Virus record (IMG/VR): IMGVR_UViG_2541047754_000003
DNA length: 40,869 bases
Reading direction: 5' to 3' (one strand)
Source: a virus
Lineage: Duplodnaviria > Heunggongvirae > Uroviricota > Caudoviricetes
The translations under genes and the position numbers were made by a program. Under the pieces are notes generated by a model, which was given only the letters and a program-made list of their open reading frames with translations, was not told the DNA's origin and did not search any database. Of the stretch, positions 32,605 to 34,799 are shown piece by piece (the first letter of the stretch is position 1; every line of letters starts with the position of its first letter).

Positions 32605-33390
32605 TTACTTGATAAATCCTGACGCCTTTCCCCGCCTGTATTCCTCCATCAGCCACTGCGCCGGTGTTATTCCCCCAAGGGTGGCGGCGTTAGGCATGCA
32701 CCCGAAACTTCGCCCTGGTGGATGGTAAACGTCTCTCCCTGTGTCCGGAGGCGTACTCATGGGTTCTGGCTTTGCCTGTATGCTGATCACCGGATCGGGT
32801 ATCTGCTGTCCGGAAGCCACCTTTTTCGCCCAATCATCGAGCAGCCTGCGCGCGTGTTTCTCAACCTCAATCTCGCTAAGCTGGCGCTGATACATTGCAC
32901 GGCGGGTATCACATACGACCCAGTACATAACCGGATGTCGCCACGGGAATCTTTCGGGACCACCAGGATATAAACTTTTTTCCTTGCTGTACCGGTGAAA
33001 CTCCGCCATCACATCGTCAATGGTGACGCCAAGAACCATCTTGCTGTCTTTACACCACTTGATGAATTGCCCTGGCGACGGCCAGAACGGAGATTCACTG
33101 GCGCGGGCGTGGCGCATACCAGCAGAAACCTGTTCACGGGTTCGGATCCCCCCTTCGGCAAACGCAGCAATCCACTGCTGTTTTGCAGCAACTTCCTGCT
33201 CTGGCGTCTTCAGGTTGGTTACCACTGCCGCCGGAAACAGTTGTTTCAGCTGTTTGAAAAGGGCATCAACAAGCCTCTCTGCTGACATGTTCACCACGTT
33301 GTCATTGTTGGTGTACTGATGCTCATAACCTGACATGCGAGAAAGGGCTTCTCCGTCACGGTTTTGTATCGCGGTAAAAACGTTGTTCAC
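32605..33390 (-). CDS. Replication protein P-like helicase loader
   Basis: GTG 33390 with GGAGG RBS, overlapping O-like stop (GTGA); motif GMRHARASESPFWPSPGQFIKWC matches lambda P region GMRVARRQNRPFLPSPGQFVAWC. Confidence 0.8.
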   Translation of the reverse strand: MNNVFTAIQNRDGEALSRMSGYEHQYTNNDNVVNMSAERLVDALFKQLKQLFPAAVVTNLKTPEQEVAAKQQWIAAFAEGGIRTREQVSAGMRHARASESPFWPSPGQFIKWCKDSKMVLGVTIDDVMAEFHRYSKEKSLYPGGPERFPWRHPVMYWVVCDTRRAMYQRQLSEIEVEKHARRLLDDWAKKVASGQQIPDPVISIQAKPEPMSTPPDTGRDVYHPPGRSFGCMPNAATLGGITPAQWLMEEYRRGKASGFIK

Positions 33391-34202
33391 AAGAAATCCT
33401 CCCATGCTTCAGGGCTGTTCCAGTGCGGAACGTTGTTATCAGATAATGTTGATTGCTTCTGTCTGCTAATCTGCAGCCGCCTTGCCAGCTTCTGCTCCCA
33501 CTGTGCCTGATGGTATGCCTTACCCTCAGCCATCCAGTAAATTCTGAACTCTGCAAGTTCCTGTGCCGTTGGCAGACTGTCCAGGTAGATCCCCTGCAAT
33601 GAGCTTTTCCGAAGAAAGTCATCTGATGGTTGCCATTGTTCATGCATGACAAATTTGCCTAATTGCCCTGGCCCACCAGGAGGAACAAAGTTATTCATCA
33701 CGGCGTTGTTTGCGCCGGGGTCATGATGCACAGAATCCCCGTTTTTTGTCCTGCTCTCCCTCTCTTGGTTAAATGACTGGTTATATGACTGGTTCTGGAT
33801 CCCGTTTTTGGGATCATTCAACATCCCGTTTTTGGGATCATTCAACATCCCGTTTTTGGGTATATTCCCGTTTTCGGGTTCATTACCGTTTTCGGGTTCA
33901 TTACCCCCCTCCCGGTCGCCTTTAATGTTCCCGTTTTTGGTTATATTAAGAGAGAAAACCCGTACTCTTTTCGTCGCCCCCTTTCTCTCTCCGGTATCTG
34001 AAATAAGACCCATTTTCATGAGCGATATAAGCCCGGCCTGCACGGTTTTTTTATTCAGGCAAGTGTCTTTAACGAGGCGTTCTATGCTGGGGTAGCAGAG
34101 GTTATATTCATCGGCTCTGTCAGCCATCGAGAGCAGTATGAGCTTTAATGACGAGCTACCTGGATCTGTCTCCCAGGCCCAATCTGTTGCATGTCTGCTC
34201 AT
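33387..34202 (-). CDS. Replication initiator (lambda O-like role) with N-terminal winged-helix domain and internal repeat region
   Basis: ATG 34202 with GGAG RBS; N-terminal HTH-like domain; repetitive peptide NGNEPENGNEPENG...KNGMLNDPKNGMLNDPKNG encoded by DNA iterons; directly upstream of P-like gene. Confidence 0.75.
   Translation of the reverse strand: MSRHATDWAWETDPGSSSLKLILLSMADRADEYNLCYPSIERLVKDTCLNKKTVQAGLISLMKMGLISDTGERKGATKRVRVFSLNITKNGNIKGDREGGNEPENGNEPENGNIPKNGMLNDPKNGMLNDPKNGIQNQSYNQSFNQERESRTKNGDSVHHDPGANNAVMNNFVPPGGPGQLGKFVMHEQWQPSDDFLRKSSLQGIYLDSLPTAQELAEFRIYWMAEGKAYHQAQWEQKLARRLQISRQKQSTLSDNNVPHWNSPEAWEDFL
33799..33947. repeat. Iteron array (putative origin of replication) inside the initiator gene
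   Basis: Six direct repeats with core CCCGTTTT(T/C)GG: two identical 24-mers ATCCCGTTTTTGGGATCATTCAAC, then four shorter variants. Confidence 0.7.
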
Positions 34203-34217
34203 GATTAATCTCCGCTA

Positions 34218-34418
34218 TCAGCTTGAATGTTGTGGGGAGGAATTAATCATGATCTGCTTAATCTCTGCCCTGATGCGACGGTTTGATTCCATGGTGCACT
34301 CAACACAGTGTCCGTTGTAAACCCAGCGTTCACTGTCATGTCCGTGCTTACATTGTTTTCCGGTGTAATAGCGTTTAAGTCCGCGCTTTGCGGCATCAAT
34401 ACGTGTAATGATTTCCAT
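34218..34418 (-). CDS. Small Cys/His-rich protein (66 aa), cII-position regulator candidate
   Basis: ATG 34418; motif C-K-H-G-H...H-C-V-E-C; located between cro and replication genes. Confidence 0.45.
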   Translation of the reverse strand: MEIITRIDAAKRGLKRYYTGKQCKHGHDSERWVYNGHCVECTMESNRRIRAEIKQIMINSSPQHSS

Positions 34419-34498
34419 GGTAAGCCCTGTTATTAGTATTGGGATTACGGTTATTTTGTGCTGACACAAAAAAAAGATCAACCAGATTTGGTTTTTTA

Positions 34499-34520: not shown

Positions 34521-34546
34521 TATGAAAAGACCGCCGGGTGGCGGTC
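34521..34546 (-). terminator. Rho-independent terminator downstream of cro (tR1-like)
   Basis: 7-bp stem GACCGCC/GGCGGTC followed by TCTTTTCA on the minus strand. Confidence 0.5.
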
Positions 34547-34568
34547 TACAGAGGGTTGTAGCTGGATA

Positions 34569-34799
34569 TCATGAGTAGAAGAAGTATGCCAGTTCTGCTT
34601 TTGAGCGCAGCCATTGTCTTGTTTTACAGGCTTTAAAAAGCCCATTCATCAATACTTTACCTGGCATTTTGCGCTTACCTGTTAAGTGAGTCTGGATATA
34701 GTGACTCGTCGTTCCGGCTTCCTGTGCGAAGGCTTCACGCTCATCCGGAGTAAGTGCAAGCCAGTGCTTTTTGAAATCGAAATGTCCGTTATCGCTCAT
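34569..34799 (-). CDS. Cro-like HTH regulator (YdaS/Cro family)
   Basis: 76 aa; divergent from repressor gene across operator region; motif LTPDEREAFAQEAGTTSHYIQ resembles Cro/YdaS-type HTH. Confidence 0.7.
   Translation of the reverse strand: MSDNGHFDFKKHWLALTPDEREAFAQEAGTTSHYIQTHLTGKRKMPGKVLMNGLFKACKTRQWLRSKAELAYFFYS

Follow-up and report, generated by a model that had tools for sequence, protein, structure and literature searches.

An iteron-like array within the initiator gene of a phiV10-like phage as the probable core of a lambda-style replication origin

Why does a replication initiator gene carry a tight array of direct repeats in the middle of its coding sequence? The question is raised by IMG/VR record IMGVR_UViG_2541047754_000003, a stretch of 40,869 nucleotides (nt; hereafter the window) from a phiV10/epsilon15-like podovirus (Uetakevirus), in which six such repeats lie within the open reading frame (ORF) at 33387-34202 on the minus strand, which encodes a protein of 271 amino acids. 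The original prediction took this ORF for a replication initiator, an assignment borne out by its match to phrog_1032, 'replication initiation protein' (E-value 3.5e-108), by its two Pfam domains, HTH_36 (residues 18-67) and the DnaT DNA-binding domain (residues 184-251), and by the lambda-P-like helicase loader gene next to it. It also likened the repeats to ori-lambda, which lies inside gene O of phage lambda. We come to a similar view: comparison of sequences suggests, with a probability of roughly 0.8, that this array, which lies where the initiator gene encodes its interdomain linker, forms the core of the phage replication origin. The locus would very probably represent a lambda-style origin within an initiator gene whose binding domain is not of the lambda-O type. 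The layout that we propose runs, in gene orientation, from a winged-helix N-terminal domain through six iterons, three units of about 12 nt of the AGAACCA type and a purine/A-rich tract to a DnaT-like C-terminal domain.

A repeat search over the window placed the array at 33799-33951, with six direct, in-register copies at 33799-33822, 33823-33846, 33847-33870, 33865-33888, 33883-33906 and 33928-33951. Their starts are 24, 24, 18, 18 and 45 nt apart, and the first two copies (33799-33822 and 33823-33846) are identical 24-mers. On the plus strand, five of the six cores read exactly CCCGTTTT(T/C)GG and the remaining copy, at 33885-33896, reads ACCGTTTTCGG. Numbered in gene orientation, on the minus strand, the promoter-proximal iteron 1 has its core at 33930-33941 (ACCAAAAACGGG), followed by the cores of iteron 2 at 33885-33896 (CCCGAAAACGGT) and iteron 3 at 33867-33878 (CCCGAAAACGGG), both in 18-nt-spaced units. 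The cores of iteron 4 (33849-33860), iteron 5 (33825-33836) and iteron 6, the last one (33801-33812), all read CCCAAAAACGGG; iterons 5 and 6 are 24-nt units with the dyad arms ATCCC...GGGAT. The GC-rich gap of 33 nt between iteron 1 and iterons 2-6 (33897-33929; ...GGCGACCGGGAGGGGGG... in gene orientation) is kept in the phiV10-like set. The word CCCRAAAAYGG has five matches in the window against 0.07 expected from dinucleotide-preserving shuffles, and CCCAAAAACGGG, with up to two mismatches allowed, has seven matches in all 40,869 nt, every one of them within 33738-33941 and on the minus strand. The word at 33738-33749 was considered as a seventh iteron and not counted, being degenerate: most near-identical prophages have TKTG or TKSG there, not TKNG. 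At the protein level, the repeats encode residues ~84-135, a linker containing ITKNGNIKGDREGGNEPENGNEPENGNIPKNGMLNDPKNGMLNDPKNG between the HTH_36 and DnaT domains, and the repeat-encoded peptide is itself repetitive (NEPENG NEPENG NIPKNG MLNDPKNG MLNDPKNG). The six repeats, the identical pair of 24-mers, their position inside the initiator ORF and the repetitive linker that they encode had all been described in the original prediction, and each was recovered here, with an exact core in five of the six copies.

Is the array maintained as DNA or as peptide? All copies in the window share one reading frame, so the answer had to be sought in relatives. These were retrieved with residues 1-83 only, that is, with the part of the protein upstream of the first repeat, and the scan patterns were confined to the N-domain. 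The viral collection yielded 80 near-identical phiV10-like prophages, and the genome collection 80 diverse loci with 40-87% identity from Enterobacterales, Vibrio, Pseudoalteromonas, Marinomonas, Acinetobacter, Desulfovibrionaceae, Sphingomonadales and others. A homologous-protein search with the N-domain returned mostly truncated or frameshifted entries and was used as a small alignment only. In a motif-agnostic search, we determined for each locus which 12-mer recurs most often, near-copies included, in the 330 nt beyond the N-domain; at nearly all loci this stretch contained 3-11 copies and the remaining ~5 kb contained 0-2. Far from being absent or unconserved in related phages, an array (at least three near-identical copies with at most one mismatch in 11) was found in 70 of the 80 diverse loci, conserved as DNA and independently of the reading frame. 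More than one frame is used by 58 of these 70 arrays. Within one and the same array the DNA word encodes PKNG, PQKR and HPKTD at locus L105, and SPKNG, IPKTE and SQKRT at locus L089. Where the units are read in the P-[K/E]-N-G frame, proline is encoded by CCC in 73 of 73 units, compared with 72 of 485 prolines elsewhere in the same genes (Fisher p 6e-51, a value inflated by relatedness); asparagine is AAC in 70 of the 73 units and lysine is AAA in 53 of 53. The central residue varies non-conservatively (N, I, Y, F) while the pattern CCC-(A/T-rich)6-GGG stays. Because the arrays of the relatives run through several frames and their synonymous codons are fixed, the constraint acts on the DNA word and not on the peptide. 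This frame and codon effect is qualitative, despite statistics that are inflated by relatedness.

The number and spacing of the units vary among relatives. Spacing peaks at 17 nt (57 cases), 22 nt (41) and 24 nt (46) in the relatives, and array size ranges from four to nine copies among the 80 prophages whose N-domains are 99-100% identical (L008-L087). In these phiV10-like prophages there are one to four 18-nt units and one to six 24-nt units, and gain or loss always involves whole units; in phiV10 itself there is one additional 12-mer (QSYNQSYNQSFNQ). We also observed that many database gene calls for the initiator stop or shift frame within or near the repeats, giving fragments of 97-130 amino acids (P0005, P0009, P0025, P0031 and others). 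These short calls are either an assembly and annotation hazard or real slippage variants.

Behind the last iteron lies a second element, which was absent from the original prediction. As a whole it occupies about 33735-33801 in plus-strand coordinates and reads AGAACCAGTCAT ATAACCAGTCAT TTAACCAAGAGAGGGAGAGCAGGACAAAAAACGGGG in gene orientation. Its first part, found by the repeat search at 33766-33801 (minus strand), consists of three units with a 12-nt period, (GATCC)AGAACCA / GTCATATAACCA / GTCATTTAACCA, and is a candidate DNA unwinding or second recognition element. Its second part, at 33735-33765 (minus strand), is a purine/A-rich tract with the coding strand AAGAGAGGGAGAGCAGGACAAAAAACGGGGAT, and includes the degenerate iteron-like word at 33738-33749. 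Three [G/T]AAYC words with a period of ~12 nt follow the array on the coding strand in 53 of 76 relatives, compared with two such clusters in 704 kb of flanking sequence searched on both strands, and the commonest start of the triple is 6 nt past the last iteron core. Spacings of 12 or 13 nt put the triple in different frames; in Vibrio phage H20, for example, it is read as QNQS + LEPV. A-rich tracts occur at the corresponding position in relatives, and in 67 of 74 loci the first 60 nt past the array exceed the ORF in AT content (mean 0.62 versus 0.55). In the window, the post-array segment has a strong purine strand bias, with an AT skew that is strongly negative on the plus strand. Taken together, the triple and the purine/A-rich tract look like a DNA unwinding element, and the second element is probably part of the origin.

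The strongest single argument for the array as the functional counterpart of ori-lambda comes from a chimaeric protein. In gp62 of Edwardsiella phage GF-2 (locus L002, 1501-2343), an HTH_36 N-domain 58% identical to that of the window is joined to five CCCAAAA(A/T)(C/T)GGG repeats (CCCAAAATTGGG); from residue 137 onwards the same protein is 62% identical to residues 156-299 of lambda O (E-value 2e-67), and a P-like gene lies next to it. By alignment, the N-domain and the array take the place of lambda O-N plus ori-lambda: they are joined at the corresponding junction to a C-domain that is genuinely of the lambda-O type. Three further proteins, gp38 of Vibrio phage H20, ORF76 of Acinetobacter phage AP22 and the PPompW 'phage replication protein', share with GF-2 gp62 and the window the HTH_36 N-domain (47-58% identity), three to seven CCC-(A/T-rich)6-GG(G/T) repeats at the same position and the GAAYC triple. 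Unlike the window, GF-2 continues into a lambda-O C-domain (with a P-like gene) and AP22 has a DnaB-type helicase as its partner; PPompW has a DnaT-like C-domain and a P-like gene. The N-domain is common to all 76 relatives, and the C-domains are DnaT-like in eight, Phg_2220_C in five, DnaA_N in two and unmatched in the rest. Downstream partners in the relatives are lambda-P-like in 18 cases, DnaB-type helicases in 4-5 and IstB/DnaC-like in two. The DNA-binding domain and its predicted sites behave as one exchangeable cassette.

What sort of protein would read these sites? Every unit is an imperfect palindrome in which 5-bp G/C-rich arms enclose an A-tract, as in ATCCC-AAAAAC-GGGAT of the 24-nt units of the window; the dyad symmetry is imperfect above all in the 18-nt units. 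Across the relatives, the three positions flanking CC...GG are complementary in 41%, 66% and 57% of cases, versus 33%, 53% and 37% in shuffled pairings (the observed values were reached in 0/2000 shuffles), and no complementarity was seen at the fourth arm position. The arms co-vary between lineages (GTACC..GGTAC, GTCCC..GGGAC, CCCCC..GGGGG), and such matched changes point to a two-fold symmetric binder. The presumed iteron-binding part of the initiator is its N-terminal domain (residues 1-83, encoded at 33954-34202 on the minus strand). An AlphaFold2 model of residues 1-88, built from a 10-sequence alignment, reached a predicted local distance difference test (pLDDT) score of 87.8 and has the form of a classic winged helix with a conserved DTGERKG motif at the wing tip. 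The N-domain is thus confidently predicted to be a winged-helix DNA-binding fold. A single-sequence AlphaFold model of the full-length protein had a pLDDT of 35 and was set aside. Fold searches with the N-domain model returned generic winged-helix DNA binders, including a plasmid RepA_N initiator, and no specific relative. The iteron word differs between lineages: enterics and Vibrio have CCCAAAAACGG, Acinetobacter has CCCAACAAYGG and locus L127 has ACCAAAAGTGG. Two Desulfovibrionaceae prophages (L141 and L164) are without the DTGERKG wing motif, and their repeat centres (CCCCCGCCGG and CCCCGAATGTGG) are GC-rich with no A-tract, which hints that the wing may read the minor groove of the A-tract. 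Beyond this coarse correspondence of lineages, we found no simple code linking N-domain residues to iteron class.

Some further observations concern the sequence of the iterons themselves. The 24-nt iterons carry three Dam sites (GATC) on their arms (GGGATC / GGATCC), at 33798-33801, 33812-33815 and 33836-33839, in this lineage only; Dam methylation or SeqA could modulate binding at the iteron arms that bear them. A terminator scan of the plus strand made two hairpin-plus-T-run calls at 33809-33852, which we rejected as terminators: each forms by pairing between the 3' arm of an iteron and the 5' arm of its neighbour (TGGGAT...ATCCCG TTTTT). Most likely the hairpins arise simply because the iterons are palindromic, and the sequence could conceivably extrude as a cruciform. 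The iteron word ACCGAAAACGGT is also identical to the consensus of the papillomavirus E2 binding site (ACCG-N4-CGGT), a match that we regard as coincidental. Both the E2 sites and the window iterons consist of an A-tract flanked by dyad arms and lie at a viral origin, that of the window being predicted.

Could the array serve some purpose other than starting replication? The alternative that survives best, although we consider it unlikely, is that the repeats are cis binding sites for the initiator's own winged-helix domain with a purely regulatory role (autoregulation, roadblock, or copy control by handcuffing or titration), and that replication starts elsewhere. Conservation at the DNA level and linkage to the N-domain show that sites and domain co-evolve, not that replication starts there, and plasmid iterons serve in both origin and control (PMC5043065). 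However, the conserved three-fold 12-mer and the A/purine-rich segment that follow the array are typical of unwinding elements, the GF-2 module sits exactly at the place of ori-lambda in a lambda-O-type protein, and no second repeat cluster was seen in the window or in the ~5-kb loci of the relatives. Less probable still is that the array is a site for another host or phage protein, for example in packaging or recombination or as a nucleoid protein, and lies in the initiator gene by chance. Binding of the initiator to the array is so far predicted only, and the three Dam sites on the arms of the 24-nt units would suit such a protein. Nonetheless, the repeats accompany the N-domain across hosts that range from Enterobacterales, Vibrio and Acinetobacter to Desulfovibrionaceae and Sphingomonadales, whatever the C-domain and the neighbouring genes; no DnaA box or IHF core was found within 33300-34300; and those Desulfovibrionaceae relatives that are without DTGERKG also have different repeat centres. 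Finally, a slippage-generated low-complexity linker (N-x-P-K/E-N-G), selected as protein and with no function as DNA, would suit the single frame and regular peptide of the window copies and the shifts in copy number by whole codon-multiple units among close relatives, but this is the least credible explanation and is largely refuted by the frame and codon analyses, in which the same word is read in two or three frames as unrelated peptides, synonymous codons are fixed and non-conservative changes of the central residue leave the DNA pattern in place.

Reading the array as the origin core also has to be weighed against several points that speak against it. We found no experiment on binding or origin activity for this initiator family in the searchable literature, and the phiV10 record is without a rep_origin annotation, as are the other records inspected; no origin is annotated in the records of GF-2, H20, AP22 and PPompW. 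The loci compared are not phylogenetically independent, about half of them being Acinetobacter prophages, and copies within an array derive from duplication, all of which inflates the p-values. The window copies share one frame, and the frame argument therefore depends on the relatives. Moreover, the post-array segment of the window is modestly AT-rich, at 58% versus 52% for the ORF. GC skew was rejected as evidence for an origin: its cumulative minimum, at ~33-35 kb, falls where the divergent transcription units meet and is uninformative.

If the array is indeed the core of the origin, how would it work? We infer binding, unwinding and helicase loading in the following way. The N-terminal winged-helix domain, probably as dimers, would bind the iterons and bend or wrap the DNA, and the adjacent segment with the 12-mers and the purine-rich tract would melt. 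The DnaT-like C-domain, possibly also acting on single-stranded DNA, would recruit the lambda-P-like loader and, with it, host DnaB. As in lambda, the origin may be activated by early rightward-type transcription that passes through the gene.

The genomic setting of the initiator is that of a lambdoid replication module. The region is 96-98% identical in nucleotide sequence to phiV10 (gp43 gene), phiv142-3 and PAS61. The DnaT-like C-terminal domain (residues 184-251, encoded at 33450-33653 on the minus strand; Pfam DnaT E-value 1.4e-15) is presumed to contact a partner or single-stranded DNA, and residues 180-264 match the DnaT chains 6aep, 4ou6 and 9zbt in the PDB with E-values of ~1e-19. The lambda-P-like helicase loader gene (32605-33405, minus strand) overlaps the initiator stop and is recognised by Phage_lambda_P (E-value 1.5e-56) and by phrog_109, 'P-like helicase loader'. 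Upstream of the initiator are a conserved ORF of small size, a hairpin resembling a terminator, a cro-like gene and a divergently oriented two-HTH repressor, a gene order that corresponds to the lambdoid early-right-operon layout. The hairpin (34528-34547, minus strand; eight pairs, six of them GC) lies between the cro-like gene at 34569-34799 and the small conserved ORF at 34218-34421. It is annotated in phiV10 too, and its position resembles that of lambda tR1; a tR1-like hairpin would mean that the replication genes are controlled by antitermination or read-through.

Do replicons exist that depend on this module? Two circular 'plasmid' records of 41 kb are phiV10-like genomes. Another circular record, from E. 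coli (NZ_CP148379.1, L168), is 8,461 bp long and encodes a repressor, a cro-like protein, YdaT, a PPompW-type initiator, a P-like protein, an HNH protein, an ATPase, hokD and rem; the PLSDB gene table, which is incomplete, gives no further replication gene for it. This record may be a mini-replicon comparable to lambda-dv (PMC5043065) or an excised prophage fragment, and it lends weak support to the origin reading.

What would a confirmed origin mean? We found no description of the origin of this initiator family in the searchable literature, where an earlier mention in phiV10/epsilon15 genome papers or reviews is possible; the 'iterons' reported for Acinetobacter belong to unrelated Rep_3 plasmids. 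Confirmation would give a defined origin to phiV10, which appears in the accessible literature in reporter phages for pathogen detection, and to related phages. A rule leading from an HTH_36 N-domain to CCC-N6-GG repeats and on to a GAAYC triple would then find origins in hundreds of prophages whose initiators are now labelled merely 'helix-turn-helix protein' or 'primosomal protein I'. The locus would also be a clear natural case of a predicted array of DNA binding sites and a protein linker written on the same nucleotides, in which the constraint on DNA dominates and all three frames are used in relatives. With GF-2 as the example, the DNA-binding domain and its iterons would move as one recombination unit, extending the lambdoid mosaic principle to a second initiator family. 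On the practical side, engineering or recoding the initiator gene would alter the origin too, and differences in repeat number and truncated gene calls are to be expected in databases at this locus. A wider proposal is possible, although we hold it only tentatively and think it somewhat doubtful: that proteobacterial phages and prophages harbour a widespread, undescribed class of origin, combining HTH_36, dyad A-tract iterons (CCC-N6-GGG) and a sequence-specific GAAYC triple as a recognition element for the initiator on single-stranded DNA or for the loader, and that the HTH_36 and lambda-O N-domains are diverged homologues with the same iteron grammar.

How does the locus compare with known systems? 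Iterons of plasmids usually lie outside the rep gene, bind monomers and have a helical phasing of ~22 bp (PMC5043065). Unlike those of iteron plasmids (Rep_3/RepA, pi, TrfA; staphylococcal RepA_N), the repeats of the window lie inside the gene, are dyad-symmetric and are irregularly spaced. Domain searches gave no Rep_3 match in the window initiator or its relatives, and no sequence-family relation to plasmid initiators was seen. With E. coli DnaT (primosomal protein I) the initiator has only its C-terminal ~70 residues in common, and it is unlike DnaT in its winged-helix N-domain, its internal repeat array and its phage replication-module context. The name 'primosomal protein I' on many records is a partial-homology label, because only the C-domain is shared with DnaT.

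The closest comparison is with lambda, and an origin inside the initiator gene is textbook knowledge for lambdoid phages, a kind of origin already known. Lambda has four iterons of the ATCCCTCAAAACGAGGGA type at O codons ~117-145, followed by a 40-bp A+T-rich segment with purine asymmetry, and P22 has an annotated origin at the same place, within gene 18. The lambda iterons are inverted repeats to which O binds as dimers; the DNA bends and the neighbouring A+T region is opened (PMC5043065). Shiga toxin (Stx) phages have six iterons compared with four in lambda, and 13 extra O residues (PMC7466680). The N-domain of the window initiator was predicted not to be lambda-O-like, and at family level this is correct. 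Both lambda O and gp18 of P22 are recognised by Phage_rep_O (PF04492), with E-values of 1e-36 to 1e-38, whereas the N-domain of the window protein matches HTH_36 only; BLASTP of the window initiator against lambda O and P22 gp18 gave nothing significant, and hhalign of its N-domain against the lambda-O family was marginal (probability 51%, E-value 1.5e-4, over the helix-turn-helix and wing). The two N-domains may still be distant homologues. Further differences from lambda are a C-domain that is DnaT-like rather than lambda-O-C, shorter iterons with 5-bp arms and two spacing classes (17-18 and 22-25 nt), and a distal element made of a conserved triple of ~12-nt GAAYC units instead of a plain 40-bp A+T tract. 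The parallel with ori-lambda that had been drawn at the outset holds in the architecture. As in ori-lambda, in the Stx phages 933W and P27 and in P22 gene 18, the array lies inside the initiator gene, between the DNA-binding and partner domains, and encodes the linker that joins them. As in lambda, G/C-rich arms surround an A-tract (ATCCCTCAAAACGAGGGA in lambda, ATCCCAAAAACGGGAT in the window), an A/T- or purine-rich segment lies distal to the iterons and a P-like loader gene follows directly downstream; and, as in lambda and the Stx phages, iteron number differs between relatives (PMC5043065, PMC7466680).

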